Sequence record: SRR22947727_139
Length of the DNA stretch: 63,574 nucleotides
Direction: 5' to 3' (one strand)
Position 1 is the stretch's first letter, and the number at the start of each line of letters is the position of its first letter. The notes under the pieces are model-generated. The model was not told the origin of the DNA and ran no database searches. It worked only from the letters and a program-made list of their open reading frames with translations. A program made the position numbers and the translations under genes. Below are positions 29,445-45,521 of the stretch, piece after piece.

Positions 29445-30467
29445 TTAAAAATCAGGCCATGTATCATTAAGCCTATAACCTTCTGGGAACGGATCATTTT
29501 TAGAAACATAAAGTTCTTGTTTTCCTGTGATAAATGCAGAACCTTTAATTAAAGGCTTAATCATTTTTTTACCGTTGCTAATAACTTCTTCTTTTATCTT
29601 TGTCTCAAATGTTGATCCTATTATTGATCTAGATATAAATACTTCATTAACATCGATTTCATTTTTTTCTTTCATTAATGCAAGCCTTGCAGATGTTCCA
29701 GTTCCACATGGAGATCTATCTAATTTACCAGGTCTAATACATACTGTGTTCCACCCCTCTTTTTGTTGAGAGCTATTTACTTTCACAGGTTCAATGAATT
29801 GGCAAAATGAAATATAATCTAAAGAAGAAATGGTCGGATGAGAAAAACTAAATTCTAGATTTGCAATTTTTATAATTTCTTTTGCTATTTCAACAAATTT
29901 TTTTGCATTCTTAGGTTCAATTGTTAAATTAAAATCTCTAGCATTACATATTATAAAGGTATCACCTCCAAACACTGTACTAACTATTATTTCTCCATAA
30001 GTTTTAGTTTTAAGTTTAACATCCATTAAATCAACAAAAGATGGGAGATTTTCAATTTCAACAGATTTAGTAATTTTATTTTTTACTTCAGCTTTTATTG
30101 CAATTAAGCCTCCAGGAGCTTCAAGAGTAAAATTAGTATAGGGTTCAGTAGACTTTATAAGATTTTTTTCTAATAATACTGTCGCTACACATATACTATT
30201 TGAACCACTCATTGGTGGATTGTCTTCAGGTTCCATGATTATAAACCCCGCTAAGGCTTCTTTATTTTTTGGTTTTACAATTAAGTTACAGTGCTTAAAA
30301 ACTCCTCCCCTTGGTTCATTTAATACAAAGTTTCTTAGTTTTTTATTTTCAAATAAATATTTTGATTGTTCAAATATTGTCTCTCCCTCTAATTTAATAT
30401 CACCCGCAACAATAACATCGCCAATTTCACCACAACAATGAGTATTATAAATTTCAATAATTGACAT
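29445..30467 (-). CDS. Proline racemase family protein (Ser/Cys active-site pair)
   Basis: HCCGE, EPRG, PMSGSN, DRSPCGTGTSAR, DPFPEG. Confidence 0.9.
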   Translation of the reverse strand: MSIIEIYNTHCCGEIGDVIVAGDIKLEGETIFEQSKYLFENKKLRNFVLNEPRGGVFKHCNLIVKPKNKEALAGFIIMEPEDNPPMSGSNSICVATVLLEKNLIKSTEPYTNFTLEAPGGLIAIKAEVKNKITKSVEIENLPSFVDLMDVKLKTKTYGEIIVSTVFGGDTFIICNARDFNLTIEPKNAKKFVEIAKEIIKIANLEFSFSHPTISSLDYISFCQFIEPVKVNSSQQKEGWNTVCIRPGKLDRSPCGTGTSARLALMKEKNEIDVNEVFISRSIIGSTFETKIKEEVISNGKKMIKPLIKGSAFITGKQELYVSKNDPFPEGYRLNDTWPDF

Positions 30468-31615
30468 TAAATTATCAAGTCTTCAATTTTTTTAGAGAAA
30501 TTTGTAATTTGCTCATAACCGTTTTCAGTAATTATAAAGCTGTCACCAACTTGGGCACGAAAATTTTCTTCATTAGCAGAACCATCAACAGCAAAAACCA
30601 TTCCAGGTTGTAAAATTGTTTTATTTCCTGAAACTAGCTGGGGTTCCTCAAGCATGCTAAAGCCAGTTGCTCTTCCACATCTAAATGTTGGGTAAGGATA
30701 GCCAGCACTTTGAATAGTTTCTGCGTAAGCTGCATGAACATCTTCAGCCTTAACACCAGGGCCCAAAACACTTAAGGCTGCTTTTTGTGATTGCACAGCA
30801 GTTTCATAAGTTTTAATTTGTGATTCATCGCGAATTTCTTTCAACCAAAATGTTCTATCAAAACCAAGTTTAAATTTATGAAAGTTTGTCATGCCACAAA
30901 AACACAAAAATACAGGCTCTCCATCTTTGATTAATTTTGTTGAGGATCGATGGTGAGTTTTGGGTAAATCTTTTCCAGAAGCCATAATTTGTAAAAAGTG
31001 AATTAAAGGAGAAATATTACTTTCCTTGAATTCATTTTCTAGAATTTCAGCAGCTTTCCTTGTACCTGCCTGAGAGGTTGCTAAAGCTACTTCATATTCA
31101 GGTACATTGTGTCCAATTGCATCTTTTCCAGCATGCATCATTGCTTCCGCAACTTTACCCGCTGACTTAGCAATTTTGAGCTCCTCTTCAGTTTTTATCA
31201 TTCTTATTAAATCTAAAATTGGTGAAATATTTTTAAATAATTTTTGCTCGTATAATGATGATATGTAATTTAGAACTAAAGTGCTGATTTTAAGTTTTTC
31301 AATTGCTACATTAGTATTTTTTTTTATATACTTTGGGAGCTCTTCTCTCCATTCATTATCAACACCATCATTCCATGTAATTATTTTATCGACAGGACAA
31401 TTTTCCTTAACTAAATGTGCATCAATGAGCGGGGTAATCAATAGAGTATCTGCATCTTTTGGAACTAATAAAAGGGTTGGTCTACCAAAAGACATATGTA
31501 AGAAATCATAATAGCCTGTAAAATAGTAGATAGAATCATCATCAGTAATGACAGCTAAATCAATATTATTTTTGGTAAGATCTTGTTTTAATTTTTCAAG
31601 ATTTTTTTTAAACAT
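30467..31615 (-). CDS. M24 (pita-bread fold) creatinase/ectoine-hydrolase-like protein
   Basis: Creatinase-type N-domain (IYYFTG), RMIKTEEE, DRTF, LQPGMVFAV, IITENGYEQIT. Confidence 0.85.
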   Translation of the reverse strand: MFKKNLEKLKQDLTKNNIDLAVITDDDSIYYFTGYYDFLHMSFGRPTLLLVPKDADTLLITPLIDAHLVKENCPVDKIITWNDGVDNEWREELPKYIKKNTNVAIEKLKISTLVLNYISSLYEQKLFKNISPILDLIRMIKTEEELKIAKSAGKVAEAMMHAGKDAIGHNVPEYEVALATSQAGTRKAAEILENEFKESNISPLIHFLQIMASGKDLPKTHHRSSTKLIKDGEPVFLCFCGMTNFHKFKLGFDRTFWLKEIRDESQIKTYETAVQSQKAALSVLGPGVKAEDVHAAYAETIQSAGYPYPTFRCGRATGFSMLEEPQLVSGNKTILQPGMVFAVDGSANEENFRAQVGDSFIITENGYEQITNFSKKIEDLII

Positions 31616-31638
31616 CTTAAGTTATCATTAAATAAAAA

Positions 31639-32796
31639 TTAAATTTTTAATTGTTGTTCTGCAAGCTCTACCCAATAAGAAGAACCTTTCACTAATAACT
31701 CATCATTAAAATCATAATCTGCTGAATGTAATGGCCTTCCATATGAGCCTGAAGTTCCATTGCCCATTAATAAAAAGCATCCAGGAGTATTTTCTGACAT
31801 AATTGAAAAATCTTCTGAAAAAGGTCTTGGATCAATATCACCATTACATTTATCTTCACCTAATAAAGTTACAGCAGCTTTTGTTGCTGCTTCTGCTTGT
31901 TTAGGTTGATTAAAAGTAACTGGACAAGTTGTTTCATACTTTACTTCAGCAGAAACTCCAAAAGATTCGCAAATACCTTCTACAAGTTGACGCATATTTT
32001 TTTCAATCATCAAGTTCGTATCTTGAGAAAATGCTCTAGCATCTCCTTTTATTAAACCATTACCGGGTAATACATTTTTTTTACCATCGGTAATAAATTC
32101 AGTCACAGAGACAACTCCAGCTTGTACAGGATCTAATTTTCGTGAAACAATTGTTTGTAATGCTAATATTATTTGACTGCCAATTGTAATTGTATCTTTT
32201 GACATATGTGGTAAAGCAGCGTGACCACCCTTACCTTTAATTAAAATTTCAAATAAATTTTCACTAGTGGTAATGCCACCTTTTCTTGTTCCAAATTCTC
32301 CTAACTCCATTCCAGGTATGTTATGCATTCCATAAACTTCATCTATGGAAAAATTAGTAAACAAACCTTCCTCAATCATTGTTTTGGCTCCAAGGGTATT
32401 CTCTTCATCTGGCTGAAAAATAAAATAAATAGTGCCATCAAAATTTCCTTGTTCTGCTAAATATTTTGCAGCACCTAATAACATCGTTGTATGCCCATCA
32501 TGACCACAAGCATGCATTCTATTTTCAATTGTAGATTTATAAGAAAAAGAATTTATTTCATTTATTGGTAAAGCATCCATGTCAGCTCTAATGCCAATAC
32601 TTTTATCACTAGTACCTTTTTTTAAAACGCCCACTACTCCTGTTTTAGCAATTCCTTGATGAACTTCTATGCCAAAATCTTTAAGCAAATTAACTACTTT
32701 ATTTGAAGCGTATTCTTCTTCAAAACTAATTTGGGGATGCATGTGCAAGTCATGTCTCCACTCAACCAACTGATTGTGCAGTCCTTGTGTTTTCAT
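31639..32796 (-). CDS. M20D amidohydrolase (hippurate hydrolase/aminoacylase type)
   Basis: RADMDALP, MHACGHDGH, FQPDEE, GMHN, GGHAA.PH, SEDF, LH...YDFND. Confidence 0.92.
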   Translation of the reverse strand: MKTQGLHNQLVEWRHDLHMHPQISFEEEYASNKVVNLLKDFGIEVHQGIAKTGVVGVLKKGTSDKSIGIRADMDALPINEINSFSYKSTIENRMHACGHDGHTTMLLGAAKYLAEQGNFDGTIYFIFQPDEENTLGAKTMIEEGLFTNFSIDEVYGMHNIPGMELGEFGTRKGGITTSENLFEILIKGKGGHAALPHMSKDTITIGSQIILALQTIVSRKLDPVQAGVVSVTEFITDGKKNVLPGNGLIKGDARAFSQDTNLMIEKNMRQLVEGICESFGVSAEVKYETTCPVTFNQPKQAEAATKAAVTLLGEDKCNGDIDPRPFSEDFSIMSENTPGCFLLMGNGTSGSYGRPLHSADYDFNDELLVKGSSYWVELAEQQLKI

Positions 32797-32800
32797 TTAA

Positions 32801-34243
32801 CTAAAGAGAATTAAACTCTTTAATTTTTTCATCAAGTGAAATCATATCTTTGTAATGCTTGTCCCAGAAAGATTGAGATCTTCTACTTTCAAACTCTTCT
32901 AAACTAGTTCCTTGTTGCTCAACCCATGTATAATAACCTAAGTTAAATATCCTCTCTTTATCAATTTGACTTAATTCCAAAGTATGATCTATTGTTATTG
33001 CTTCAAAATTTTTAGCAAAAATTTCTGCACAAGTGACCTGATCATAAATTTTACTAAATTGTTTTTTTGTTTTAGCTAGTTCTGTTTCATATAAATCAGC
33101 TCCATCAGTTGCCACTGTTATAATAGCATCATTTTTTGATAGCTTCATTTTTTTAGCAAGTTTTATTGAAGCAATAATATTGGCAATTGAAGAAAACCCA
33201 AACTCAGGCAATCTATCTACAAAATCTGAATCAAATCCTTTTCTTTTTGTTAAATAATTTTTACCTTCATCCGTATTGAATAATAAATTGAGATTATTTG
33301 TAGCTTCGTCCGATACACCAACTACATAATCTGAATTCATGACATTATGTATTAAAGGCACATGTTTGTCGCCAATACCTTGAATATTATGTTCACCATA
33401 ACCATTATAAAGAAGAGTTGGACATTCAGTAGCTTCAACAACTGCAATTTGCGCATTAAGATTTTCCTTTAAATAATCTCCCGCAGCTAATGTTCCGCTT
33501 GAACCAGATGCAGAAACATAAAACCGAGCTTGAAGATCGGATTCGCCTTTAACTTTTAAAAAAGATTTTTCAAAAGATGCGCCAGTAATTGCTCTATGAG
33601 TTGCATAATTATAATATTCATCAAATTGATTAATAATATCATTATTTTTATCTTTCTCTAATTCATTACAAGCATCATAAATTTCTTTAACATTACTTTC
33701 TGTGCCAGTAGTTTTAATAATATCATTTTTATCTTCAACCCATTTTTCAAGCCAATTAAATCTTTCCTTGCTCATCCCTTCAGGAAGAATTGCTACACTT
33801 TTGAAACCTAATATTTTAGAAATAGCAACGCCTCCTCTGCAGTAGTTTCCTGTAGAGGGCCAAACAGCTTTTTGTTTAGTATAATCGAATGAACCATTCA
33901 AAATTCTTGGCAATAAACAACCATATGCCGCCAAAACTTTATGAGCTGTTATAAGTGGAAAATATCTACCAAGATTGACAATTATTTTTGCGTCAACTCC
34001 AGTGAACTCACTTGGTAAAACAATATGTTCGGGAACATCTAAAAATTTACTATGATCTCTTTTATTAAACCAGTGTACTCTAAATAAATTTGCTGGGTCC
34101 ATTGCATCTTTATCTAGTTTTAAAACTTTATTTTTTATTTCCTCACTTATTGAATGTGGGTTTTTCAATTCAGATATTTTAGGAAGAACAACACCTTTTT
34201 CCTTAAAATATTTTGCAGTTTTTTCAACAATGTTACTTTGCAT
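32801..34243 (-). CDS. Fold-type II PLP-dependent enzyme, function unknown
   Basis: AHKV (PLP lysine), WPSTGNYCRGG, PEGMSKER, SGSSGT, IQGIG. Confidence 0.82.
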   Translation of the reverse strand: MQSNIVEKTAKYFKEKGVVLPKISELKNPHSISEEIKNKVLKLDKDAMDPANLFRVHWFNKRDHSKFLDVPEHIVLPSEFTGVDAKIIVNLGRYFPLITAHKVLAAYGCLLPRILNGSFDYTKQKAVWPSTGNYCRGGVAISKILGFKSVAILPEGMSKERFNWLEKWVEDKNDIIKTTGTESNVKEIYDACNELEKDKNNDIINQFDEYYNYATHRAITGASFEKSFLKVKGESDLQARFYVSASGSSGTLAAGDYLKENLNAQIAVVEATECPTLLYNGYGEHNIQGIGDKHVPLIHNVMNSDYVVGVSDEATNNLNLLFNTDEGKNYLTKRKGFDSDFVDRLPEFGFSSIANIIASIKLAKKMKLSKNDAIITVATDGADLYETELAKTKKQFSKIYDQVTCAEIFAKNFEAITIDHTLELSQIDKERIFNLGYYTWVEQQGTSLEEFESRRSQSFWDKHYKDMISLDEKIKEFNSL

Positions 34244-34245
34244 AA

Positions 34246-34905
34246 TTATATCTTTCTTTGTTTAAAACGTTTTTCTAACTTCATGGCAATAATGGCAGAG
34301 GGAATAGATACTATTAAGAAAAATACTCCAACTAAAGTCATTGGTTCTAGATATTTATAATGACTATTACTATACTGGTCTGCGGCTCTGAATAATTCAA
34401 CGACTGTGATAGCTGCAAGTAAAGGAGTCTCTTTAAACATAGTAATCAAGTAGTTAGCAAGAGGCGGAATCATAGGTGGAATAGCCTGTGGCAAAATTAC
34501 ATTTTTCCAAGTCTGATATTGATTGTAGTTCAATGATTTTGCAGCTTCCCATTGACCTTTGTGGACATTATCAATTCCTGCTCTAAAAACTTCTGCAGTG
34601 TATGTACTAAAATGAATACCAAGAACTAAAACTCCGCAGGTAAAAGCTTCAAAAAAAATACCAAAATCAGGCAAAACATAAAACACTACATACAGTTGAA
34701 CTAAAATTGGAGTTCTTCGAATAAATTCTGTAGTCCAATATAGAACAAACCTCAAAATTTTACTTTTGGACATTTTTAAAATAGCTATTCCAAGACCCAA
34801 AACGTAAGCAAGGATTGAAGCAACAAATGTTGCCTGAATAGTTACCACAACCCCTTTTGCTAGTTGTGGCAGTACATCAAAAGCAACTTCCCAACTCCAA
34901 TACAT
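34246..34905 (-). CDS. ehuD: Ectoine-type ABC permease EhuD; start 34905
   Basis: EFIRRTPILVQLY, AEVFRAGI, GQWEAA, NYLITMFKETPLL. Confidence 0.85.
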   Translation of the reverse strand: MYWSWEVAFDVLPQLAKGVVVTIQATFVASILAYVLGLGIAILKMSKSKILRFVLYWTTEFIRRTPILVQLYVVFYVLPDFGIFFEAFTCGVLVLGIHFSTYTAEVFRAGIDNVHKGQWEAAKSLNYNQYQTWKNVILPQAIPPMIPPLANYLITMFKETPLLAAITVVELFRAADQYSNSHYKYLEPMTLVGVFFLIVSIPSAIIAMKLEKRFKQRKI

Positions 34906-34906
34906 T

Positions 34907-35575
34907 TTAATTCTCTCCTGCAATCATAATATTTCTTCCCTTAGAAAATTTGTTAGCAATTATGTCGACAATCTTCACTAAAATTGAAGCGATGATAAAA
35001 TAAATAACTAATATCACGAGGAAAGGTTCTAAAGTTAAAGCGGTCTGTACTCTAATTATATGAGCCATAAATGTTAAGTCAGAAATTGTAATAAGAGATG
35101 CTACTGAAGTTAATTTTAAAAGTTCAATTAATAAATTTCCAAAAGTAGGAATCATGACAGGAATTGCTTGAGGAATAATTACGTACCTATATCTTTTGTA
35201 TGGAGGATAATTTAATGCCAATGAAGCCTCGTGTTGTTCTTTGCCTACAGCAAGAACTCCACCTCTCACTACTTCTGATCCATAAGCTCCAAGATTGCAA
35301 CCAATAGCAACAACACCAGCAGTTAAAGCATCAAAATAAATTCCCCACATTGGTAATACAAAATAAATAAAAAACATTTGAACGAGAGCGGAGCTACCCC
35401 GAAAAAATTCTAAATAAATTATAGCTATAATTCTAACTATTTTAAATTTTGATATTCTTGATAAGCCGACAACAAAAGAAATAACAAGAGCTAAGATCGC
35501 GCTTAAAACTGTTAAAATAATTGTCGTAATTGTACCATCGATCAGAATGGGATAAAATGCTAGAACTTCTTTCAT
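34907..35575 (-). CDS. ehuC: Ectoine-type ABC permease EhuC; start 35575
   Basis: EFFRGSSALVQMF, GAYGSEVVRG, FGNLLIELLK, DLTF. Confidence 0.85.
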   Translation of the reverse strand: MKEVLAFYPILIDGTITTIILTVLSAILALVISFVVGLSRISKFKIVRIIAIIYLEFFRGSSALVQMFFIYFVLPMWGIYFDALTAGVVAIGCNLGAYGSEVVRGGVLAVGKEQHEASLALNYPPYKRYRYVIIPQAIPVMIPTFGNLLIELLKLTSVASLITISDLTFMAHIIRVQTALTLEPFLVILVIYFIIASILVKIVDIIANKFSKGRNIMIAGEN

Positions 35576-35578
35576 AAT

Positions 35579-35611
35579 AAAAAAAAATTGCCCTGTAATA
35601 ATACAGGGCAA
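35579..35611 (-). terminator. Intercistronic hairpin with U-tract between ehuB and ehuC
   Basis: TTGCCCTGTA-ATAA-TACAGGGCAA at 35588-35611, followed on the minus strand by about 9 T. Confidence 0.8.
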
Positions 35612-35629
35612 AGTATTTTAAAGTTTAAT

Positions 35630-36472
35630 TTATTTTCCGTCTGGACATCTTGTCAGATATGATTCACCAGCAGTTGCTTCTGCTGAAAACCCATATGGCT
35701 CAATAATAGCTGCAAACTCGCCAGTAGCTTTAAGTTTTGCTAATGCCATATTGTATTCTGCTCTGAATTCAATATCATCCATATTGAAAGCAGCTCCAGC
35801 ACACCCAATTGGAACTCCAGAAATAGGCATAACTAATTCTAAATTAGAATCATTTGTTTTGTTTAACAAATCTTGAGTTCCTAAACCAGAAAGAGCAAAT
35901 ACATCAACTCTACCCTGTTGAAGCATTTTGATACCACTTGGAGGTGTATCGAAATAAACTATTTGATCTGCTTTAACGCCTCTTTCTAAAGCATATTTTT
36001 CTTCAGCACATCCAGCACAAGTAGTCATTTTTAAAGCAGGTTGTGCGGCGATATCTTCATAAGTAAGTAAGTTATTAGGATTTCCAGCAGGAACTGCAAA
36101 AGCTTCAGCCCCACATAAATCAGGCTCTGAATAAATAATAGACTCACATCTGTCAGGCTTGATATAAAGGCCTGAAGTTGCCATATCTACTCTTCGTGCC
36201 TGAAGTGCAGGTATCATAGCTCCATACATTATTACTTCAGCTTTTAAATCTGGAACACCAAGAATATTTAATACCGCTCTTGCAACATCTGGAGCAGCAC
36301 CAGTTACATATCCGTCAGTTTTAATATCACTGTATGGTGGTTCATTTGCAACAGCAACAGTTGCATAACCCTGCTTCTTTAATCTTTTTAATGTATCAGA
36401 CTCAGCAAAAGAAACGTTAGCTGAACCTAAAAGAATTAAAAAAGAAGCAAAAAATAAAATTATTTTTTTCAT
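35630..36472 (-). CDS. ehuB: Ectoine/hydroxyectoine ABC substrate-binding protein EhuB
   Basis: Signal peptide, ANEPPY, GAAPDVARA, YGAMIP.LQARR, GLYIKP.RC, GNP. Confidence 0.87.
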   Translation of the reverse strand: MKKIILFFASFLILLGSANVSFAESDTLKRLKKQGYATVAVANEPPYSDIKTDGYVTGAAPDVARAVLNILGVPDLKAEVIMYGAMIPALQARRVDMATSGLYIKPDRCESIIYSEPDLCGAEAFAVPAGNPNNLLTYEDIAAQPALKMTTCAGCAEEKYALERGVKADQIVYFDTPPSGIKMLQQGRVDVFALSGLGTQDLLNKTNDSNLELVMPISGVPIGCAGAAFNMDDIEFRAEYNMALAKLKATGEFAAIIEPYGFSAEATAGESYLTRCPDGK

Positions 36473-36595: not shown

Positions 36596-36610
36596 ATATA
36601 GTACCAAATG
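36594..36610 (+). promoter_or_regulatory. Extended -10 (TGaTATAGT) 5 nt before the regulator ATG; probable leaderless mRNA
   Basis: TG at 36594-95, TATAGT at 36597-36602, ATG at 36608, no SD. Confidence 0.55.
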
Positions 36611-37072
36611 GACAAAATAGATTCATTTGATCTAAAAATTCTTAAGTTAATTCAAGAAAATAACAAAATAACATCAGAAATTTTAGCAAAAAAAGTTGGC
36701 TTATCTTCATCAGCTTGTCAAAGAAGAATAAATTCAATGCGCAAAGCCGGTATTATACAAAAAGACGTTTCTATTATTAACCGCAATGTTCTTGGTCGAA
36801 AAATTACTATTGTTGTTCAAGTTCTTAGCGACAAGGAAGGAGTTGAGTACAGTGAAGAATTTAAAAAAATAATGATTAAAGCACCTGAGGTTATGCAATG
36901 CTATTATGTTACTGGTGATTACGATTATGTATTAATTGCTACTTTTGTAGATATGGAAGAGTATGAATTATTTACCCAAAAGTATTTTTTAAATAATACA
37001 AATATAAAAAGATTTAGTTCTATGGTTGTAATGAATTGCGTTAAGGAAAACTTATCTATTCCTCTTAATTAA
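36608..37072 (+). CDS. Lrp/AsnC family transcriptional regulator (DoeX/AsnC-like position)
   Basis: D..D.KIL, LAKKVGLSSSACQRRI HTH, CYYVTGDYDY. Confidence 0.93.
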   Translation: MDKIDSFDLKILKLIQENNKITSEILAKKVGLSSSACQRRINSMRKAGIIQKDVSIINRNVLGRKITIVVQVLSDKEGVEYSEEFKKIMIKAPEVMQCYYVTGDYDYVLIATFVDMEEYELFTQKYFLNNTNIKRFSSMVVMNCVKENLSIPLN

Positions 37073-37841
37073 TATTACTAATAAACTTTTTTAGAAATGA
37101 TTTTGTACGCTCTTCCTTAGGATTAGAAAAAATATCACTAGGTTTTCCAGACTCAACAATTTGACCATTATCAAAAAACAAGACTCTATCTGCAAAATCT
37201 CTTGCAAAATTCATTTCGTGAGTGACTGTCAACATTGTTGTATCTGAGTTTGATGCCAATTTATGCAATACTTGCAAAACCTCATCTACTAGTTCAGGAT
37301 CTAATGCAGATGTTACTTCATCAAATAACATAATCTTTGGGTCCATTGCTAATGCCCTAGCTATAGCAACTCTTTGCTGTTGACCTCCTGATAATTGATG
37401 AGGATAATGATCTACTTTATCACTTAAACCAATCATGTTAAATAATTCCGAAGCTTTATCATGTGCTTCAGATTTATTTTTTTTCTTTATTAGAATTTGA
37501 GGTTCTTGAACATTCTCTATTGCAGTTAAATGTGGAAATAAATTAAACTGTTGAAATACCATTCCAATATGATCACGCATTTTTTGTAAATGTTTGTCTG
37601 AGGCATTAACAATTTTACCTGCATTTTTTTCATGCCATAAGTACTCATTGTTAACTAAAACAAAACCATCATCAATCGTTTCCAGGGTCATTAATATTCT
37701 CAAAATTGTTGTTTTTCCTGAACCACTAGGTCCTATTAATGCAAGTTTTTCACCATCTTTAACTTCTAAACTTAACTGATCTAAAACTTTTAAGTCTCCA
37801 AACGACTTAGAAACTTTTTCAAACTCAATAATATTATTCAT
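37065..37841 (-). CDS. ehuA: Ectoine-type ABC ATPase EhuA
   Basis: GPSGSGKTTILRILMTLE, LSGGQQQR, FDEVTSALDPEL. Confidence 0.88.
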   Translation of the reverse strand: MNNIIEFEKVSKSFGDLKVLDQLSLEVKDGEKLALIGPSGSGKTTILRILMTLETIDDGFVLVNNEYLWHEKNAGKIVNASDKHLQKMRDHIGMVFQQFNLFPHLTAIENVQEPQILIKKKNKSEAHDKASELFNMIGLSDKVDHYPHQLSGGQQQRVAIARALAMDPKIMLFDEVTSALDPELVDEVLQVLHKLASNSDTTMLTVTHEMNFARDFADRVLFFDNGQIVESGKPSDIFSNPKEERTKSFLKKFISNIN

Positions 37842-37861
37842 CGATTTTAATTTCTAGTTGA

Positions 37862-40168
37862 TTAATATTTTTGTTCAAGCTTTTTTTGCATTTTAGGTTT
37901 TAAAAATATCTTAACCTTTTTTATCTCATTTTGCTTAGCCTTTCTTATTTCAACAAGGCACGTATGAGAAGTTGGAGCTTGTGAAAGTTGAGATGTACCT
38001 ATGTCTTTCGTTAATACATTGGGATTTCCATGTAAATCAGTATTAATTTCATAATCAGGATCAAACCATGCACCTGTAGATAAAACCAAAACACCTTTCA
38101 TAATCTCATCAGATAATCTTGCCCCTGCAAGAACTCTTCCACGTTTATTAAATATTAAAACAATATCATTATTCTCAATATTTCTCTCTTTTGCATCCTC
38201 AATATTTATTAACACAGGTTCTCTGTCTTTAATTTTATTTTTGAGACTATATTCGGCATTATCTAGCTGACCATGCAGTCTATATTCTGGTTGATTTGAT
38301 AAAAGATGAAGTGGAAATTTTTCTTTTCTACCAAGCCATTCATATGGCTCTATCCAGGTAGGATGCCCTTTACAATCTTTCAAATTATATTTTTTGATTG
38401 TACTTGAAGTAATTTCAATTTTACCTGAGGGTGTATTCAAAGGGTTTATCTTTGGGTTATCTCTAAAATCTTTAAACATAATTTTTTTGTTTTTTTCAAT
38501 TGGTACTTCAAAAAAACCATCCTCCCAAAATTTATCAAACTCTGGTAGTTTTAAATTCATTTCTTCTGAAACTTTTTTACTTTCATTCCACAAATATTTT
38601 AACCAATCTAATTCTGATTTATTTTCTGTAAAAGAATTTTCAAAACCTAACTTATTAGCAAGAAAGGAAAATATTTCAAAATCAGATTTGGATTCACCAA
38701 TTGATGAAATAGTTTTTTTGTTAGCAATAATAGTTGGGTCTCTTGGATTGAGCATAATATCATTTCTCTCCAAAGCTGTATTTGCTGGAAGAATAATATC
38801 TGCATGTCTTGCTTGCGCATTCCACCAAATTTCATTTACAATTATAGTTTTTGGTATTTGCCAAGCTTTAACTAATCTATTTAAATCTTGATGGTGATGA
38901 AAGGGATTACCTCCTGCCCAATATATTAATTTTATATTTGGATATTTTAGTTTTTTTCCATCATATTGAAAAATTTCATTAGGTTTTTCTAACATATCAG
39001 TAATTCTTGCTACAGGTATAAAGTCTTTAATTTTATTTTTACCTTGAGGTAGACTTTTCCAAGGTATTTTTTTAAAAACATCACCAGTGCTATTAACACT
39101 TGAATAACCAAAACCTATCCCACCTCCTTCTGTCCCAATATGACCTAGCATTGAAGCTAAAGTGATTCCCATCCACAATGGTTGCTCTCCAGCAGAAGCT
39201 CTTTGTAGACTCCACGAAATTGAAATCATTGTTTTATTTTTGGAAATCTCTTCTCCTAACCATTTTATTGTTTCTACTGGTATGGATGTAATATTTGAAG
39301 CCCATTCAGGGGTGCATGGCTGATTATTATTTTTTCCTAAAACATATGATTTAAATTCATTAAAACCATTAGTATATCTATCAATAAATTTTTTATCATA
39401 TTTATCAGAAACAATTAAAATATAGGCTAAGCTTAACATTAAAGCTGTATCGGTATTTGGAATAATGGAGACTTGCTTAGCATTTAGAAATTTAGCTGAA
39501 TCATTAGCATTAGGACTAATGTTTATAAATTTAGTACCTGACTCAATGCATTTTCTTAATGCTATTTCTGTAGTATGCTTTCCAACACCACCAGCGGAAA
39601 CTTGCGAGTTTTTTAGAGGCATTCCACCAAACATTACTATCAAATCACATTCTTTTTCTAAAGTATTCCAGGTGTTATGCTCATCTAAAAAAGAGTAAAG
39701 GTCATGACCAACAATGTGAGGTAATAAAGTTTGTGCTGCAGCATAAGAATAACTTTGTAAAGATGATGAAAACCCACCAAATAAATTAAAAAAACGATTT
39801 AATTGACTTTTTGCATGATGAAATCTTCCAGCACTAGCCCAACCATAAGACCCGGCGTAAATGGAGTTATTGCCAAAATTGTTTTTTATATTTTCTAATT
39901 CAAATGCCGTTATATCAATTGCTTCTTTCCAAGAAACTGCAACGAATTCATCAAGACCTCTTAAGTTTTTTCTATTATCTCTATTTTTTAACCAGTCTTT
40001 TCTAATATAAGGCTGATTAATTCTAAGATCATCTGTTGCTGACTTAAGGAAACCTAATCCAAAATCTGATGGATTTGGATCTTTTGACCATTTGTTGATT
40101 TTTATATTTTTTCCATTTTTTTTTGAGGTTTCATAAGTCCCCCAGTGAGTACTAACAAAGTTCTTCAT
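37862..40168 (-). CDS. Molybdo-bis-MGD S/N-oxide reductase, BisC/DorA-type (DMSO reductase family III), no Tat leader
   Basis: THWG, GSYGWASAGRFHHAKSQ, YSYAAAQ (Ser ligand), WAGGNPFHHHQD, TPSGKIEI, RLHGQLD, HGNPNVLT.D. Confidence 0.9.
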   Translation of the reverse strand: MKNFVSTHWGTYETSKKNGKNIKINKWSKDPNPSDFGLGFLKSATDDLRINQPYIRKDWLKNRDNRKNLRGLDEFVAVSWKEAIDITAFELENIKNNFGNNSIYAGSYGWASAGRFHHAKSQLNRFFNLFGGFSSSLQSYSYAAAQTLLPHIVGHDLYSFLDEHNTWNTLEKECDLIVMFGGMPLKNSQVSAGGVGKHTTEIALRKCIESGTKFINISPNANDSAKFLNAKQVSIIPNTDTALMLSLAYILIVSDKYDKKFIDRYTNGFNEFKSYVLGKNNNQPCTPEWASNITSIPVETIKWLGEEISKNKTMISISWSLQRASAGEQPLWMGITLASMLGHIGTEGGGIGFGYSSVNSTGDVFKKIPWKSLPQGKNKIKDFIPVARITDMLEKPNEIFQYDGKKLKYPNIKLIYWAGGNPFHHHQDLNRLVKAWQIPKTIIVNEIWWNAQARHADIILPANTALERNDIMLNPRDPTIIANKKTISSIGESKSDFEIFSFLANKLGFENSFTENKSELDWLKYLWNESKKVSEEMNLKLPEFDKFWEDGFFEVPIEKNKKIMFKDFRDNPKINPLNTPSGKIEITSSTIKKYNLKDCKGHPTWIEPYEWLGRKEKFPLHLLSNQPEYRLHGQLDNAEYSLKNKIKDREPVLINIEDAKERNIENNDIVLIFNKRGRVLAGARLSDEIMKGVLVLSTGAWFDPDYEINTDLHGNPNVLTKDIGTSQLSQAPTSHTCLVEIRKAKQNEIKKVKIFLKPKMQKKLEQKY

Positions 40169-40177
40169 CTAATAAAT

Positions 40178-41161
40178 TTAGTTAACAATTATTCCCAATT
40201 TTTTTTTATCTGCAATTGCATAAGCATATCGAGCAATTGCTGTATCCTGGACTCCTGTACCCGTTAAATCAGCTACCGTGATATCATCATTATTTTTTCT
40301 ACCTAATTTTGGATTCATAATAATTTTTCCTAAATCATTAAAGATCATATCACTTTTGATTAAATTATTTTTAATAGCATGATTTAACTCACCTAAAATA
40401 CTTGTTTGAGCTTGGCTGTCTGGGACATAAGCATCACAATTTTTAATTATATTAGGTTCTAACTCATTTTTTTCTTCTGCATCTGAGCCCATGGCAGTTA
40501 TGTGTATACCTTTAGGTAAAGAAGAATAATCAACAAGAGGTTTTTTACTTGGGGTAGTTGTAATTAAAATATCAGCATTTTTAACAACTTCGCTTGTGTT
40601 ATCGAATGCTGTAAAATTAAGGTTAATTTTTTTAGTGACATTTTCAATGTAAGCATGAGTTTTTTTTATATCTCGAGACCATACATTTACATTTTTAATA
40701 TCTCTAACTAGAGTAAGCGCCTCAAGTTGCATTCGTGCCTGTATTCCAGTCCCAATTATTGCAACTGTAGAGGAATCTGGATTAGATAAATATTTAGAAG
40801 CTATGGCTCCTGCTATTGCAGTTCTTACATCAGTTAAATATCCCTTGTCTAATAAAACAGATTTTATTACACCTGTTTGTGAGTCTAAAAGAATCATCAA
40901 ACCATTACTAGAAGGTAGTCCTAGCTTTGGATTATTAAAAAAACCTGATGCTACTTTCACTGCAAAACTATCTAACCCCTCTATATACGCAGCTTTAACA
41001 TCTGACTCACCGTGATATTTCTCAATATCAAGTCGTAAAATGGGAGGCATTACTGTCTTGCCTAGTGATAAATTTTTAAAAGCATCTTCAATTATAGGAA
41101 TTAGTTCTGCATTAAATTGTACACACTCCTTAATCTCCGCTGAATTAAGAATTAAGGTCAT
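40178..41161 (-). CDS. eutC: EutC, ornithine cyclodeaminase/mu-crystallin family
   Basis: DVKAAYIEG, SGFFNNP..GLPS, GYLTDVRTA, MGSDAEEKNE, DLTGTGVQDTAIA. Confidence 0.88.
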   Translation of the reverse strand: MTLILNSAEIKECVQFNAELIPIIEDAFKNLSLGKTVMPPILRLDIEKYHGESDVKAAYIEGLDSFAVKVASGFFNNPKLGLPSSNGLMILLDSQTGVIKSVLLDKGYLTDVRTAIAGAIASKYLSNPDSSTVAIIGTGIQARMQLEALTLVRDIKNVNVWSRDIKKTHAYIENVTKKINLNFTAFDNTSEVVKNADILITTTPSKKPLVDYSSLPKGIHITAMGSDAEEKNELEPNIIKNCDAYVPDSQAQTSILGELNHAIKNNLIKSDMIFNDLGKIIMNPKLGRKNNDDITVADLTGTGVQDTAIARYAYAIADKKKLGIIVN

Positions 41162-42108
41162 GCTATTATTTTATTAAATAAATTTGCGTCTATATTTCCA
41201 CCGCAAATTAAACTTATTATATTTTTTCCTAATTTTTTTGACATATTGTCTTTCACTACCATAACCCCAGTAGCTGCAGCTCCCTCTGTTACCAATTTGT
41301 GCTCAACAAAATTTAATTTAATACCCTCAGCAATCTTAGCTTCATTAACAAGCACAAAATCATCAATTTTTTCTTGTGCTATTTTAAAAGTATATTGATT
41401 ATCCAAACCAATACTTCCACCCAAACAATCAGCTAAAGTTTCTAATTCCTCAACATCTGTTGGCTTACCATTTTTTAAACTCTCAAACATAGAAGGCCCT
41501 CTTTCCATAGAAACAGCAATTATGTTCACAGATGGTTTTTGTAATTTAATAGCCAAAGCAATACCTCCAATTAATCCACCCCCTGAAGTTGGGATGATAA
41601 CAGTATCTACCTCAGGAAAATCCTCTAACATTTCTAAACCCAGAGTCCCTTGACCTGCAATTACTTCCTCATCATCAAATGGATGGACTAAAGTAATATT
41701 TTGTTCTTTAGCAATTTTTTTTGCATACAAGTCAGCTTCATCACTATTATTGCCAATAATTTCAACTTTAGCACCCAAAGCTTCAATTGCTTCCTTGCGA
41801 TATTGAGGAACCATTGATGACATATAAATTGTTGATTGAATGCCAAGAACACTAGCAGCATAAGCAACTCCTTTACCATGATTACCAGTAGATACAGCTA
41901 TTACACCTTTTTGCTTTTGTTCATTATCCAATGATAATAATTTATTTGTCGCTCCTCTTAATTTAAAGGAGCTGGTAATTTGAAGTGACTCTAACTTCAA
42001 CTTAACAATTCTATCTTTAGATAAATAATTTGATAATATTAGTGGAGTCCTATTGATATAGGGAAAAATAGCTTCATGTGCTTTTTTAATTTTCTCTAAA
42101 TTAATCAA
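41158..42108 (-). CDS. eutB: EutB, threonine dehydratase-like PLP enzyme
   Basis: LKLESLQ..SFKLRGA, STGNHG, HPFDD, GGGL, LAD.LGG.IG; lies between eutA and eutC. Confidence 0.85.
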   Translation of the reverse strand: MINLEKIKKAHEAIFPYINRTPLILSNYLSKDRIVKLKLESLQITSSFKLRGATNKLLSLDNEQKQKGVIAVSTGNHGKGVAYAASVLGIQSTIYMSSMVPQYRKEAIEALGAKVEIIGNNSDEADLYAKKIAKEQNITLVHPFDDEEVIAGQGTLGLEMLEDFPEVDTVIIPTSGGGLIGGIALAIKLQKPSVNIIAVSMERGPSMFESLKNGKPTDVEELETLADCLGGSIGLDNQYTFKIAQEKIDDFVLVNEAKIAEGIKLNFVEHKLVTEGAAATGVMVVKDNMSKKLGKNIISLICGGNIDANLFNKIIA

Positions 42109-42146
42109 AATAATTTACTTTTATTTGTTTTAAAAAATTTCATATT

Positions 42147-42899
42147 TCAGCTGGCTAATAATTTACCATAGCCCTCTATTTTTGAGTCAATATCAACTGA
42201 CCTTAAACAATCCCATATAATAGCCTGATTACTAGATATTACTATTGTATTTAGTTTCTTTTCAATTTTATCTAATACATCTACAATCTTAAGTGCCGTA
42301 CAAGAAACAAACAATCCATCAACTTTACTAAGATCTATTTTTGTAATTTCTTTCTCTAAACTATCTAAGCTTACTTGGGCAATTTCAGAGTCATACTCTA
42401 AATTAAATGAACTAAAAGACTCAACATGAATATTATTGTCATTCAAATAATTATAAACCGTTACATTTACATTTTTTGGATAAGGAGTAAGAACAGCAAT
42501 ATTTTTTAAGCCTAGATGTTTAAACGCTTTCAAAGCTGCTGTTATGGGTGTTGTGACTTTAGCATTTGGCTTTGTTTTATTAACCTCTTCTTTTATTTTT
42601 TTTGAACCAATAGCAATTGTTCCAGAAGTACATCCATATGCAATGATATCTATATGTTGAGATGGTAAAATCTGCTCAGACACATCACTAATATGATTGG
42701 CCATTTTTAAATAATTTTCATGATTTAAAGGATTTTCAAATGGAATACGGTTAACAAAAATATCAACCGGAATTTGATGACAAATACTTCTATAATCTTG
42801 TTCTATAGTAAAATCTGTTGATAGCGCAATTACACCAATTTTAGGATTAACTGTTTTAACAATTTCTGCTTTTAAATCGTTTTGAACAAAAGTGCTCAT
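42147..42899 (-). CDS. eutA: EutA, Asp/Glu racemase-maleate isomerase family; start 42899
   Basis: GVIALSTD.TIE.D, YGCTSG, LTPY, SCTAL, SSNQA; ATGA overlap with the upstream gene. Confidence 0.85.
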   Translation of the reverse strand: MSTFVQNDLKAEIVKTVNPKIGVIALSTDFTIEQDYRSICHQIPVDIFVNRIPFENPLNHENYLKMANHISDVSEQILPSQHIDIIAYGCTSGTIAIGSKKIKEEVNKTKPNAKVTTPITAALKAFKHLGLKNIAVLTPYPKNVNVTVYNYLNDNNIHVESFSSFNLEYDSEIAQVSLDSLEKEITKIDLSKVDGLFVSCTALKIVDVLDKIEKKLNTIVISSNQAIIWDCLRSVDIDSKIEGYGKLLAS

Positions 42900-44002
42900 A
42901 CTTGATTTGGAAAATAATCTTCGCATTCTCCATCTCTGTAAACATCTGTTGTAGCACAATGAAGACTTCCTCCAAATGCATACACGTCTCTAAAAGGAAC
43001 TGGAACTACCGTCATACCAAACCCTTCCATTTGTTTAATCATCTTTTCTTCGGATGCCTCAACACAAATAGTTGTTGGGTTTAAAATTAAAACATTCATT
43101 GATAACCAAATGGATGAATAACACATTGGAGGTGGCGTATTATGAACAGATGGTGCTGCATCAATAATTTCCCACTTATTATTATCAAAGATCTTTCTTT
43201 GCTCATTAGAAATCTTTCTATTTGGATTTATAATAATCACCCCTGGTTTAATTGGTGTAAAACAAGCATCTATATGCGTAGGAATTAACTCGCCTGGTAA
43301 ATTCACTTGATGAACACGGTGATTTGGAAAATGTCTTTTTAACCAATTTAATCCTTTTAAATTAGAGGTAAAATTATTGTGATAAAATAAATCTTTTCCA
43401 AAACGCAATATTTCAGCCGCATCAAATAACGGCTCTTGTTCTGTTAAAATCATATCTTTATCTTCAATTTTTTTATACCTTTCTTCCTCAGTTATTCCTT
43501 CAGGTAAATAATTTGATTTATAAGTAGCCTTAGTTAATCGCGGTTTTGGCGCTGACTCCCAACGCATATTAGGATCTTCATCATAGTACTTTTCAAGTAA
43601 AGGTCTGTAGGCAAGATATTCAAACCATCTACAACGATAAGACATAGGAGCTTCTAACATCTCATTACCAACCGTTAAGATAACATCTCTTGGGGGCATA
43701 GATCCAAATTGCCCATCATTTATCCAGTCAGGTGTTTGAATTGCTTTTGTAAAATCTATCGGAGTTGGGCGGTCTACCTTTATATTATGTGACTCAAGAA
43801 TTTTAACAAAATTGTTGAGCTGTATATTTGCTTTTTCTATAGCTTCACTTGAGCGCGGGCCATGAGATCCAGCCATGCCACTATCTTTACTAATTTTAGG
43901 TTCCAAAGCAGGTTCCATTGGGGGAATATTTGAGTGCTCAACTGTGCCAACAATTACATGCTTTAAGGGATCCCATTCATTCCACGAGTTAACTATTGTC
44001 AT
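42896..44002 (-). CDS. Amidinotransferase (AGAT/StrB1/CyrA family)
   Basis: VNSWNEWDPL, PPRD, FDAA, HID, WLSMN, GGSLHC (Asp-His-Cys triad intact). Confidence 0.9.
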   Translation of the reverse strand: MTIVNSWNEWDPLKHVIVGTVEHSNIPPMEPALEPKISKDSGMAGSHGPRSSEAIEKANIQLNNFVKILESHNIKVDRPTPIDFTKAIQTPDWINDGQFGSMPPRDVILTVGNEMLEAPMSYRCRWFEYLAYRPLLEKYYDEDPNMRWESAPKPRLTKATYKSNYLPEGITEEERYKKIEDKDMILTEQEPLFDAAEILRFGKDLFYHNNFTSNLKGLNWLKRHFPNHRVHQVNLPGELIPTHIDACFTPIKPGVIIINPNRKISNEQRKIFDNNKWEIIDAAPSVHNTPPPMCYSSIWLSMNVLILNPTTICVEASEEKMIKQMEGFGMTVVPVPFRDVYAFGGSLHCATTDVYRDGECEDYFPNQV

Positions 44003-44069
44003 ATTTATCTCTATAAATTAAAAGTTACTAAAGTAATTTAATAAAATACATAAATAAGAGGAAGTAAAT

Positions 44070-45521
44070 ATGAAACTAAAAAATAATGCACTTTTTAAGG
44101 AAACTTGTTTTATAGGTGGAAAGTGGATTGAAAGTGACTCCGGTGAAAAAATCAAGGTAGATAATCCCGCTAATGGTGAAATTATTGGAGAAGTTCCTAA
44201 ATGTTCAACTTCTGAAACACAAAAAGCAATTCAAGAAGCTCAAGCCGCATTTCCTTCTTGGAGAGATAAAACTGCAAAAGAAAGATCGATCATTTTACAA
44301 AAATGGGCAAGGCTCATTGAAGCAAATGCTGATGACTTAGCAAAAATAATGACAATCGAACAAGGAAAACCTTTAGCTGAAGCAAAAGGTGAAATATTAA
44401 TGGGTGTTACGTATATTGATTTTTATGCTGAAGAAGGAAAAAGAGTATACGGGGATATTATCCCCGATCCTATGCCAGATAGAAGGATAGTTATTATAAA
44501 ACAACCTGTAGGAGTTGTTGGAGCTATAACACCCTGGAACTTTCCAAGTACAATGATCACAAGAAAATGTGCTCCCGCACTAGCTGTTGGATGCACAGTT
44601 GTAATTAAACCAGCAAGTCAAACGCCTTATTCTGCTCTAGCTCTTGGAGTATTGGCAAAAGAAGCAGGTTTTCCTGATGGTGTAATGAATATTATTACAG
44701 GAGCAGCAAGTGCTATAGGTAAAGAATTAACAGAAAATCCTTTAGTTAGAAAAATATCATTTACTGGCTCAACAGAGGTTGGAAAAGTTCTTCTACAACA
44801 AAGTGCCACTACTGTTAAAAAAGTTTCTATGGAACTTGGTGGGCATGCACCTTTTGTAGTTTTTGATGATGCAGATTTAGATGAAGCCATAACTGGAGCC
44901 ATGCAAAGTAAGTTTAGAAATTCAGGACAAACATGCATTTGTGCGAATAGAATTTTTGTGCATGAAAAAGTTTATGATGAATTTTTGAATAAATTTATAG
45001 ATGAAGTAAATAAAATCAAAGTTGGAAATGGTTTAGAAGAAGGAATTGTTTCTGGTCCTCTAATTGATCAACCTTCTTTAATGAAAGTTCATGACCAAGT
45101 AAAAGATGCTGTCAACCAAGGTGCAAAAATTGCTGTTGGTGGTGACGTTCATTCACTTGGAGGCAATTTCTATCAACCAACTGTGCTATCTAACGTTACA
45201 TCTAAAGCAAAAATTACTTACGAAGAAACATTTGGGCCAGTAGCTCCTTTGTATAAATTTAGCTCTGATGAGGAAGTTATTAAAATGGCAAATGATACTC
45301 CATACGGTCTTGCTTCTTATTTTTATTCTAGAGATATTGGTAGAATTTGGAGAGTAGCTGAGGCTCTAGAATATGGGATGGTAGGTGTAAATACAGGCCT
45401 AACTACAAAAGCTGAAATACCTTTTGGTGGAGTAAAAGAATCTGGACTTGGAAGAGAAGGTTCTAAGTATGGATTAGATGATTATCTAAATATTAAATAT
45501 ATTTCAATGGCAGGCATCTAA
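44070..45521 (+). CDS. gabD: Succinate-semialdehyde dehydrogenase (GabD/DoeC-like)
   Basis: PWNFP, ELGGHAP, KFRNSGQTCIC, EETFGP, GLGREGS. Confidence 0.9.
   Translation: MKLKNNALFKETCFIGGKWIESDSGEKIKVDNPANGEIIGEVPKCSTSETQKAIQEAQAAFPSWRDKTAKERSIILQKWARLIEANADDLAKIMTIEQGKPLAEAKGEILMGVTYIDFYAEEGKRVYGDIIPDPMPDRRIVIIKQPVGVVGAITPWNFPSTMITRKCAPALAVGCTVVIKPASQTPYSALALGVLAKEAGFPDGVMNIITGAASAIGKELTENPLVRKISFTGSTEVGKVLLQQSATTVKKVSMELGGHAPFVVFDDADLDEAITGAMQSKFRNSGQTCICANRIFVHEKVYDEFLNKFIDEVNKIKVGNGLEEGIVSGPLIDQPSLMKVHDQVKDAVNQGAKIAVGGDVHSLGGNFYQPTVLSNVTSKAKITYEETFGPVAPLYKFSSDEEVIKMANDTPYGLASYFYSRDIGRIWRVAEALEYGMVGVNTGLTTKAEIPFGGVKESGLGREGSKYGLDDYLNIKYISMAGI

Follow-up and report, generated by a model that had tools for sequence, protein, structure and literature searches.

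The 63,574-nt stretch of DNA of sequence record SRR22947727_139 (hereafter the window; all positions refer to its whole length) carries, around the locus studied here (29445..45521), what we read, with about even confidence, as a variant island for the uptake and breakdown of ectoine and hydroxyectoine, joined to accessory modules for related nitrogen-rich solutes. Classical ectoine-system orthologues appear to be interleaved with a conserved SAR11 enzyme operon, and an insert would add an ectoine importer and a local regulator in mid-operon. The window, with a GC content of ~31%, comes from SAR11 (Pelagibacteraceae), because thousands of marine-metagenome copies of one of its proteins, a 480-aa pyridoxal-phosphate (PLP) enzyme termed PLP480, are 94-97% identical to it and the source name for one of them is 'Pelagibacteraceae bacterium'. 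Very few genes fix the substrate range of SAR11, the most abundant heterotroph of the surface ocean. Roughly half of the 187 genomes searched in its order contain parts of the island, which is of interest for SAR11 physiology as a lead to what these cells eat.

In the proposed scheme, all steps of which are inferred from homology, EhuABCD would import ectoine and hydroxyectoine, a EutD-like hydrolase of the M24 family would open the ring to N-acetyl-diaminobutyrate, and an M20D amidohydrolase would take off the acetyl group in lieu of EutE. The 5-hydroxyl of the hydroxy form would be removed by EutA (epimerase), EutB (PLP dehydratase) and EutC (imine reductase). Diaminobutyrate would then be converted to aspartate semialdehyde by an enzyme outside the assigned set, and onwards to aspartate via an SSADH-type dehydrogenase. 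The accessory modules (an amidinotransferase, PLP480, a creatinase-like M24 hydrolase, a Ser/Cys-type proline-racemase homologue with a DpkA-like reductase, soxBDAG and a BisC-type reductase) might either supply the missing lower step or widen the range to creatine or guanidinoacetate, hydroxyproline-type imino acids, and S- or N-oxidised forms.

In the literature searched, we found no description of this island, no paper joining Pelagibacterales with ectoine catabolism, and none using the term 'DoeB2'. The accessible parts of two papers place an ectoine/hydroxyectoine ATP-binding cassette (ABC) transporter in SAR11 at the level of annotation only (PMC6018831, PMC10030771), while those of a third report an ectoine binding protein in one cultured SAR11 strain among those then sequenced and count 'creatinase' as core to subgroup Ia (PMC3686209). 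As far as its main text was available, a 2026 survey of ectoine catabolism does not discuss SAR11 (PMC13188858), and in the portions at hand of a SAR11 transporter paper in Nature in 2024, ectoine figures in the ligand library only and not in the main text. Newly described here are the cassette of Ehu, BisC and Lrp genes and its alternatives, along with a comparison of orthologues with canonical clusters and searches of stand-in genomes. Should the Ehu variant channel ectoines into central metabolism, the nitrogen and carbon nutrition of SAR11 would be tied to a major osmolyte pool of bacteria and algae; should the conserved core have another substrate, the island would point to an unrecognised nitrogen-rich metabolite flux. 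Swappable transporter-plus-reductase cassettes would represent diet diversification in streamlined genomes.

The predicted ectoine importer and its counterparts in canonical clusters

All four Ehu subunits score above the cut-offs of their NCBIfam equivalog models (Table 1), in keeping with a dedicated importer. EhuB is ~51% identical to the Sinorhizobium meliloti EhuB structure 2q88 (264 bits over 244 residues; identity counted from the alignment). The ligand contacts of the S. meliloti protein, which we take to be Glu, Phe, Tyr, Phe and Arg (reportedly from Hanekop's work of 2007), align in the window with Glu, Tyr, Tyr, Tyr and Arg, i.e., with two Phe-to-Tyr changes, and the window EhuB is predicted to be a substrate-binding protein of the ectoine-binding type.

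We sought EhuB matches at E<=1e-45 in a 401-genome sample of the class, and four genomes matched. The three matches from outside SAR11 (50-55% identical to EhuB) sit in textbook ehuABCD-eutABCD clusters, which also carry a divergent Lrp gene and an SSADH gene. EhuA is 58-60% identical to its counterparts in these clusters and the transporter subunits overall 48-60%, compared with 45-46% for EutB, 48-50% for EutC, 44-47% for the EutD-like hydrolase and 44-52% for SSADH, in agreement with an Ssd/DoeC-type enzyme whose substrate role here is predicted; EutA reaches only 30-33%. By these identities, EutB, EutC, the EutD-like protein and SSADH resemble their canonical counterparts about as much as the transporter does its own, and mainly for this reason ectoines are favoured as the true substrate. 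The best model for the EutD-like protein is by far the ectoine hydrolase (472 bits vs 173), and its gene is present in all five Ehu-carrying genomes.

The window resembles the canonical ectoine clusters in having EhuABCD above cut-offs and proteins 44-52% identical to their EutB, EutC, EutD and SSADH, together with an AsnC/Lrp regulator divergent beside the transporter. It differs from them in that its transporter is split over two operons, its EutA is remote, EutE/DoeB, Atf/DoeD and EnuR are missing from it, and its genes are spread over 24 kb, among the amidinotransferase, the BisC-type enzyme, PLP480, M20D, the creatinase-like M24, the proline-racemase homologue, an Ldh_2-family reductase and soxBDAG. 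The EutB-like and EutC-like proteins also resemble BhcB and BhcD of the beta-hydroxyaspartate cycle (206 and 170 bits), but these scores are far below the cut-offs (550 and 500), so the likeness is mechanistic and not one of membership; it suggests a shared logic, the removal of a beta-hydroxyl.

A preliminary description of the window had pictured a remodelled ectoine-like system from which EutE, Atf and EnuR are absent. In scans of all large open reading frames (ORFs) of the window, we likewise found no EutE/DoeB, no class-III aminotransferase (diaminobutyrate transaminase, Atf/DoeD) and no MocR/EnuR regulator. That description had also proposed a search for doeB and doeD elsewhere in the genome, which we made in five stand-in genomes whose EhuB is 94-97% identical to that of the window; these are incomplete assemblies, so absence in them is not proof. 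Neither EutE nor an EctB/DoeD-type transaminase exceeded its cut-off in any of the five, and the sole GntR-family match, found in one of them, is with 222 aa too short for EnuR. As a control, EutE was recovered above cut-off in 4/4 reference genomes with canonical clusters, within or close to the eut cluster, and a weak match (217 bits) appeared in one of four more distant relatives. With canonical EutE, transaminase and EnuR not found and the extra enzymes conserved with eutABC (see below), the picture of a remodelled system stands, but it had overlooked the EutD-like hydrolase at 21974-23146.

Non-orthologous replacement of the lower pathway, the first of the two explanations offered earlier, fits in part. 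The M20D amidohydrolase scores 311 bits against the NCBIfam DoeB2 deacetylase model (cut-off 550), 308 bits against CpsA and 248 bits against Bacillus subtilis YxeP (PDB 1ysj), and is a plausible candidate for an N-acetyl-diaminobutyrate deacetylase standing in for EutE. For the transaminase, no replacement could be assigned; generic class-III aminotransferases number 3-6 per stand-in genome, and a housekeeping enzyme of this class could act in place of Atf/DoeD.

Ehu might instead serve only to accumulate ectoines as osmoprotectants, its catabolic neighbours being incidental, and the accessible text of PMC6018831 and PMC10030771 does count the ectoine transporter of SAR11 among osmolyte-uptake traits. 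We regard this as very improbable, given that the ehu genes sit amid catabolic enzymes, in the same orientation, and that these enzymes have their nearest relatives in ectoine-catabolic clusters. Furthermore, the part of a review available to us describes S. meliloti Ehu as substrate-induced and used for nutrition rather than osmoprotection (PMC5924519).

A conserved enzyme operon with strain-variable inserts

We compared the window proteins with 187 genomes of the relatives' order (0.7-1.6 Mb each). The amidinotransferase is present in 93 of these genomes and PLP480 in 89, and the two occur together in 85 (lists compared by hand), whereas EhuB is found in 5 and BisC at >=65% identity in 10. 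The EutD-like gene occurs in 56 genomes, usually ~10 kb beyond PLP480. A BisC paralogue of ~50% identity was noted in 44 other genomes of the order, all of them without the amidinotransferase operon.

A tblastn survey of related loci with 28 window proteins showed that, in four low-GC relatives, eight enzymes form a single unbroken same-strand block in the conserved order amidinotransferase-EutA-EutB-EutC-PLP480-M20-M24-proline-racemase homologue, flanked by SSADH-ROK-BioY on one side and soxBDAG on the other. These compact blocks contain no ehu, Lrp or BisC gene, and EhuB is absent from the whole genomes of the four relatives. Four architectures were seen in the regions fetched: the compact one (G008, whose amidinotransferase is 97-98% identical to that of the window), the window type (G071), one without Lrp (G040), and one with an alternative cassette (G038, G026). 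The insert sits within the enzyme operon at gaps of 2-20 nt, and in G040, where only Lrp is lacking from it, the result is one uninterrupted 14-gene array. From these architectures we conclude that the enzyme operon is ancestral, that the six-gene BisC-EhuA-Lrp-EhuBCD block is a strain-variable insert, and that transporter-plus-BisC cassettes entered the operon more than once. The preliminary description had six non-canonical enzymes inserted among ectoine genes; the reverse holds, the enzyme operon being conserved (89-93/187) and the ehu, BisC and Lrp genes variable (EhuB 5/187). Its suggestion to examine conservation of the cluster bore out, in that the extra enzymes are tightly conserved with eutABC and the genes are also found in RNA libraries.

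A side observation concerns G040 (L094, 2836-16831), which is a mosaic: its segment from EhuB to PLP480 is 93-94% identical to the window, whereas identity is only 65-77% for EutA, EutB, EutC and BisC as well as for M24 and the proline-racemase homologue. This difference suggests that the ehuBCD-PLP480 segment moved by recombination between SAR11 lineages.

The alternative architecture (G038, L091, 6742-18317; G026, L092) holds a different, inverted cassette between EutA and EutB. Besides an ABC importer of what we call the Trp-box type, it encodes a BisC, an ArgE-like deacetylase (443 bits against a cut-off of 412) and an 814-aa DAO+GCV_T demethylase, and it is adjoined by two additional DoeA_2-like M24 genes. 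Its binding protein is only 26-27% identical to EhuB. At the positions of the ligand contacts, the binding proteins of this cassette and of Rhodobacterales loci (see below) carry Ala/Val/Ile, Trp, Trp, Tyr and Arg. Because the acid that meets ectoine's amidinium would thereby be lost, these residues suggest a different, perhaps betaine-like, ligand.

Several of these results weigh against an ectoine pathway as the function of the island. The enzyme operon is far commoner than Ehu (89-93 vs 5 of 187 genomes), and since four relatives have the operon but no EhuB, ectoine is not necessarily what the operon primarily acts on. A second lineage (G038, G026) put a different ABC system into the operon, with a binding protein that has no ectoine-contacting Glu. 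EutA (200 vs 318 bits), EutB (383 vs 413) and the EutD-like protein (472 vs 613) are below their equivalog cut-offs, as is M20 against DoeB2 (311 of 550 bits), and M20 homologues lie outside canonical clusters. The step from diaminobutyrate to the semialdehyde is without an enzyme, the best EctB/DoeD-type match in the stand-in genomes reaching 188 bits against 552, and those genomes, on which the absences rest, are incomplete. Finally, we know of no role for an amidinotransferase in any published ectoine route, even though that gene is coupled to EutA.

A possible alternative, which we rate clearly below the ectoine reading, is that the eight-gene operon degrades a different nitrogen-rich solute (a cyclic amidine or guanidine, or an N-methylated or diamino-acid-derived compound) and that Ehu is a second feedstock or a hitch-hiker. 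The amidinotransferase would salvage the amidino group, M24 would open the ring or cleave a C-N bond, M20 would deacylate, and PLP480 would remove a beta-substituent. This would account for the majority of operon carriers lacking EhuB, and for an operon that in G038 and G026 took up another ABC system along with the ArgE-like deacetylase, the DAO+GCV_T demethylase and two DoeA_2-like M24s. However, EutB, EutC and the EutD-like protein are as similar to their canonical ectoine-cluster counterparts (44-50%) as the Ehu subunits are, the EutD-like protein is best matched by the ectoine hydrolase model, and the alternative points to no particular compound. The accessory enzymes bear further on this alternative.

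Accessory enzymes and the solutes they may act on

The amidinotransferase is similar over its full length to enzymes of the L-arginine:glycine amidinotransferase (AGAT) type, scoring 246 bits against the human enzyme (1jdx, residues 4-364) and also matching SxtG, HsvA and StrB1. It contains the motifs THID and SLHCATTD, which presumably hold the catalytic His and Cys. Its stop codon overlaps the start of EutA (ATGA), and it is translationally coupled to EutA, a point in favour of the non-ectoine alternative outlined above. On the other side, its orthologues in six other alphaproteobacterial genomes (59-64% identity) show no linkage to Eut or PLP480 genes, and its surroundings in five larger genomes of Alphaproteobacteria gave no pointer to its role. 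In an alphaproteobacterial genome of 30% GC and 1.3 Mb (G573; L100, 7046-14660), an orthologue (61%) is flanked by two creatinase-like M24 genes and a beta-eliminating lyase, and it adjoins MoeA and MobA, genes for the molybdenum cofactor.

BisC scores 611 bits against dimethyl sulfoxide reductase 1dms in an alignment that starts at residue 11 of the mature enzyme. It has no twin-arginine (Tat) leader and keeps the positions of DorA Y114, W116 and S147, features by which it is classed as a putative cytoplasmic S/N-oxide reductase. An apparent internal TGA in the BisC of G071 turned out to be merely a stop three codons earlier.

PLP480 scores far below the cut-offs of all cysteine-synthase models (CysK 78 bits vs 351), and it has extensions of ~100 aa at its N-terminus and ~80 aa at its C-terminus. 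Two alignments were built, A1 (12 sequences), which was too diverse, and A2 (5 sequences), which was used to retrieve related loci; Lys102 and the STGN and GSxGT loops are invariant in both. By this conservation, PLP480 keeps the PLP lysine together with the carboxylate and phosphate loops. Its family comprises 295 representative clusters at E<=1e-30. Among the matches listed with A2, we inspected 80 loci from named genomes, in which SAR11 proper is under-sampled. PLP480 abuts a second PALP enzyme in 38 of these 80 loci, mostly in other phyla, and recurring neighbours are an XDH-type hydroxylase (23/80), an OTCase-like protein (11/80), an amidohydrolase (10/80) and carbamate kinase. The XDH-type hydroxylase, the OTCase-like protein, carbamate kinase and other such partners are absent from the window. 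These contexts show only that the family may act on small nitrogen-rich amino acids in several settings; some of the paired-PALP loci have genes of N-heterocycle or ureido context, in line with a non-ectoine solute.

Another group of loci, from Rhodobacteraceae, Hoeflea and Actibacterium pelagium (L052, L057, L059, L061), carries a divergent Lrp, an EhuB-like binding protein, two permeases, an ATPase and PLP480, followed by BisC in three of the four. Nearby are genes for a diaminopropionate ammonia-lyase, a DoeB2-like M20, an M24 and EutA/EutB-like proteins. Their EhuB-like protein is below the EhuB cut-off and 27-30% identical to EhuB, with a Trp/Trp/Tyr box and no Glu. The company that PLP480 keeps there (the EhuB-like protein, Lrp, BisC, the ammonia-lyase, the same M20 type and EutA-like genes) again fits an operon directed at a solute other than ectoine.

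The second M24 hydrolase (30467..31615) was considered as EutD and ruled out, since it scores only 60 bits against the DoeA models. Its best matches are creatinase 1chm (82 bits) and prolidases (76-80 bits), and it has Arg at a prolidase metal-binding His (GH to GR) and has lost the first Asp ligand, as in creatinase. Because creatinase is its nearest relative and the metal ligands are lost, we read it as a probable C-N hydrolase of the amidine/guanidine type and not a canonical dipeptidase, a feature that also favours an amidine or guanidine as substrate of the operon. With its Creatinase_N domain and lost metal ligands, and its position upstream of soxBDAG, it recalls the creatine-sarcosine-glycine route (creatinase plus sarcosine oxidase), as does the AGAT-type amidinotransferase in the operon. 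The difference is that prolidases match it equally well. SAR11 sox genes are usually assigned to glycine-betaine demethylation. The consulted part of one paper allows that SAR11 sarcosine oxidases may demethylate other compounds (PMC9321204).

The proline-racemase homologue has the dyad Ser87/Cys254, with Ser in PMSGSN and Cys in DRSPCGTG, and so neither the Cys/Thr nor the Ser/Thr pair. In the accessible portion of PMC4113996, a Ser/Cys dyad marks a 4-hydroxyproline 2-epimerase and a Ser/Thr pair the 3-hydroxyproline dehydratase. The window enzyme is a candidate hydroxyproline-type epimerase or dehydratase of a cyclic imino acid, and together with the DpkA-like reductase and EutC, of the ornithine-cyclodeaminase (OCD) family, it looks like a predicted cyclic-imino-acid module. 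As in hydroxyproline modules, which combine 4-hydroxyproline 2-epimerase or trans-3-hydroxyproline dehydratase with a delta1-pyrroline-2-carboxylate reductase of the OCD or Ldh_2 family, a Ser/Cys superfamily member adjoins a DpkA-like Ldh_2 reductase, and an OCD-family enzyme is in the operon. Such modules differ from the window in that no set of D-amino-acid oxidase, DHDPS-type deaminase and ketoglutarate-semialdehyde dehydrogenase was seen in it; moreover, the homologue scores 425 against the NCBIfam dehydratase cut-off of 550, and its substrate could be another cyclic imino acid.

These pairings could also be taken to mean that the island is a mosaic of independent small modules packed by genome streamlining, with no single pathway, a view we hold to be rather unlikely. 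Ehu, the EutD-like hydrolase, M20, EutABC and SSADH would handle ectoines; M24 and soxBDAG would lead from creatine via sarcosine to glycine; hydroxyproline-type imino acids would be processed by the proline-racemase homologue together with the DpkA-like reductase; the amidinotransferase would make or consume guanidinoacetate; and BisC, with a BioY gene 6 kb away, would salvage free methionine sulfoxide or biotin sulfoxide. Each sub-pair does fit a known two-step route: the pairing of a Ser/Cys superfamily enzyme with an Ldh_2-family (MLD2) reductase is found in the available text of PMC4113996, and that of PMC3686209 invokes a creatine-to-glycine route for SAR11, to which it already ascribes a 'creatinase'. 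The insert, the EutD-like gene and Ldh_2 were gained or lost independently among close strains, and the mosaic identities of G040 (93-94% from EhuB to PLP480, 65-77% in the flanks) also indicate recombining segments. Yet eight genes in the same order, at near-zero spacing, in at least 85 genomes would be unusual for unrelated functions, and in Alphaproteobacteria far from SAR11, too, BisC keeps company with PLP480 and an ABC importer (3/4 loci), so that proximity to BioY is by itself insufficient to explain it.

A bolder proposal about the operon is that it encodes an undescribed pathway for a cyclic amidine, guanidine or diamino-acid-derived solute. AGAT would conserve the amidino nitrogen, metal-free M24s would cleave C-N bonds and PLP480 would be a new beta-lyase, while swappable ABC-plus-BisC cassettes of the EhuB or Trp-box type would feed in reduced or S/N-oxidised solutes. 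We put this forward tentatively and think it rather unlikely.

Gene layout, expression and neighbouring genes

The layout given in the preliminary description, two minus-strand operons flanking an Lrp gene with a divergent gabD/doeC-like gene, was reproduced by ORF calls and Pfam/NCBIfam scans, in which every ORF of at least 100-120 aa in the window was scanned (Table 1). Operon 1 runs amidinotransferase-EutA-EutB-EutC-BisC-EhuA and operon 2 EhuB-EhuC-EhuD-PLP480-M20-M24-proline-racemase-family gene, with junctions of -17 to +38 nt within the operons. Lrp is divergent from ehuB (135 bp between them) and convergent with ehuA. The EutA-like gene probably starts at the ATG at 42899, while the ORF call opens at 42959. 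Between operon 2 and the EutD-like gene, which are ~6 kb apart, lie soxBDAG and the Ldh_2 reductase; the latter is kept at the same position in G071, G008 and G040, and the position of soxBDAG is likewise the same in relatives.

Table 1 Genes of the island, with positions in the window and the matches on which their assignment rests
Feature	Position	Strand	Evidence
SSADH family (Ssd/DoeC-like)	44070..45521	+	divergent from operon 1, 67-bp spacer; TIGR01780 714 bits (cut-off 646)
AGAT-type amidinotransferase, first gene of operon 1	42896..44002	-	246 bits to 1jdx; no Pfam match above threshold
EutA-like, Asp/Glu/hydantoin-racemase family	42147..42899	-	TIGR02990 200 bits (below cut-off 318); Pfam Amdase
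EutB-like PLP enzyme, threonine-dehydratase family	41158..42108	-	PRK07476 383 bits (below cut-off 413)
EutC-like, ornithine-cyclodeaminase/mu-crystallin family, imine reductase type	40178..41161	-	PRK08291 456 bits (cut-off 408); TIGR02992 424 bits (below 472)
Putative cytoplasmic BisC/DorA-type molybdopterin S/N-oxide reductase (insert)	37862..40168	-	TIGR00509 905 bits (below cut-off 1017)
EhuA ABC ATPase (insert), last gene of operon 1	37065..37841	-	TIGR03005 401 bits (cut-off 345)
Lrp/AsnC-family regulator (insert)	36608..37072	+	Pfam AsnC_trans_reg, HTH_24, HTH_AsnC-type
EhuB substrate-binding protein (insert), first gene of operon 2	35630..36472	-	TIGR02995 288 bits (cut-off 191)
EhuC and EhuD permeases (insert)	34246..35611	-	TIGR03004 233 bits (cut-off 197); TIGR03003 276 bits (cut-off 205)
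PLP480, 480-aa fold-type-II (CysK-fold) PLP enzyme	32801..34243	-	weak PALP match, 37.6 bits
M20D amidohydrolase	31639..32796	-	TIGR01891 317 bits (cut-off 154)
Creatinase-like M24 hydrolase	30467..31615	-	best PDB match creatinase 1chm, 82 bits
Proline-racemase-superfamily enzyme	29445..30467	-	PF05544 330 bits; NF047722 425 bits (below cut-off 550); PDB 4k8l 351 bits
Ldh_2-family reductase, DpkA type (delta1-pyrroline/piperideine-2-carboxylate reductase-like)	28437..29438	+	PF02615 287 bits; PDB 1wtj 244 bits
soxBDAG, heterotetrameric sarcosine-oxidase type	23224..28288	-	TIGR01373 594 bits (cut-off 529); TIGR01372 1160 (cut-off 1164); PF04267
EutD/DoeA-like M24 hydrolase	21974..23146	-	TIGR02993 472 bits (below cut-off 613)

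A scan of the window with Rfam at the gathering threshold returned a tRNA-Leu as its sole match, with no guanidine, glycine or other riboswitch. Around Lrp, a promoter and terminator scan found 3 promoter-like sites, compared with 5.7 expected, and 0 terminators.

The genes of the island are transcribed in the sea. Part of the stretch occurs in nine runs recorded as RNA, and contigs of four RNA libraries from four studies cover 29-30 of 30 bins and every gene. RNA contigs bridge the EhuD/PLP480, EhuA/BisC, BisC/EutC, EutC/EutB and EutA/amidinotransferase junctions, although such contigs are not proof of single transcripts. Word depth is highest over ehuB (in three runs 217-726, vs <10 from BisC to the amidinotransferase), which is a hint that ehuB is strongly expressed, depth being unsuited to ranking genes. 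Two 'skip' joints (32265>38479 and 36398>42840) were disregarded, each consisting of one contig with sides of 20-23 nt. Many RNA contigs, in all four runs, diverge from the window at 37527-37567 inside ehuA; they probably derive from other ABC ATPases, this conserved motif region being common to them.

Adjoining the EutD-like gene, two proteins are encoded head-to-tail on the plus strand (window 19581-21971), one of 569 aa that belongs to no Pfam or NCBIfam family and a DUF3726 protein of 225 aa. Both are conserved together in G071, at 89-90% identity, and L073 holds a DUF3726 homologue. In the Protein Atlas, the 569-aa protein falls in 'hypothetical protein' clusters only, and PLP480 in clusters with generic names only. 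Further upstream, at 13091-17707 and 364-2424, the window encodes a pot-type ABC system, whose binding protein is of the SBP_bac_8 family, and a fused permease of choline/betaine type (686 aa). The same region includes several aldehyde dehydrogenases and a DadA-like oxidase, and is rich in genes of osmolyte and amine catabolism.

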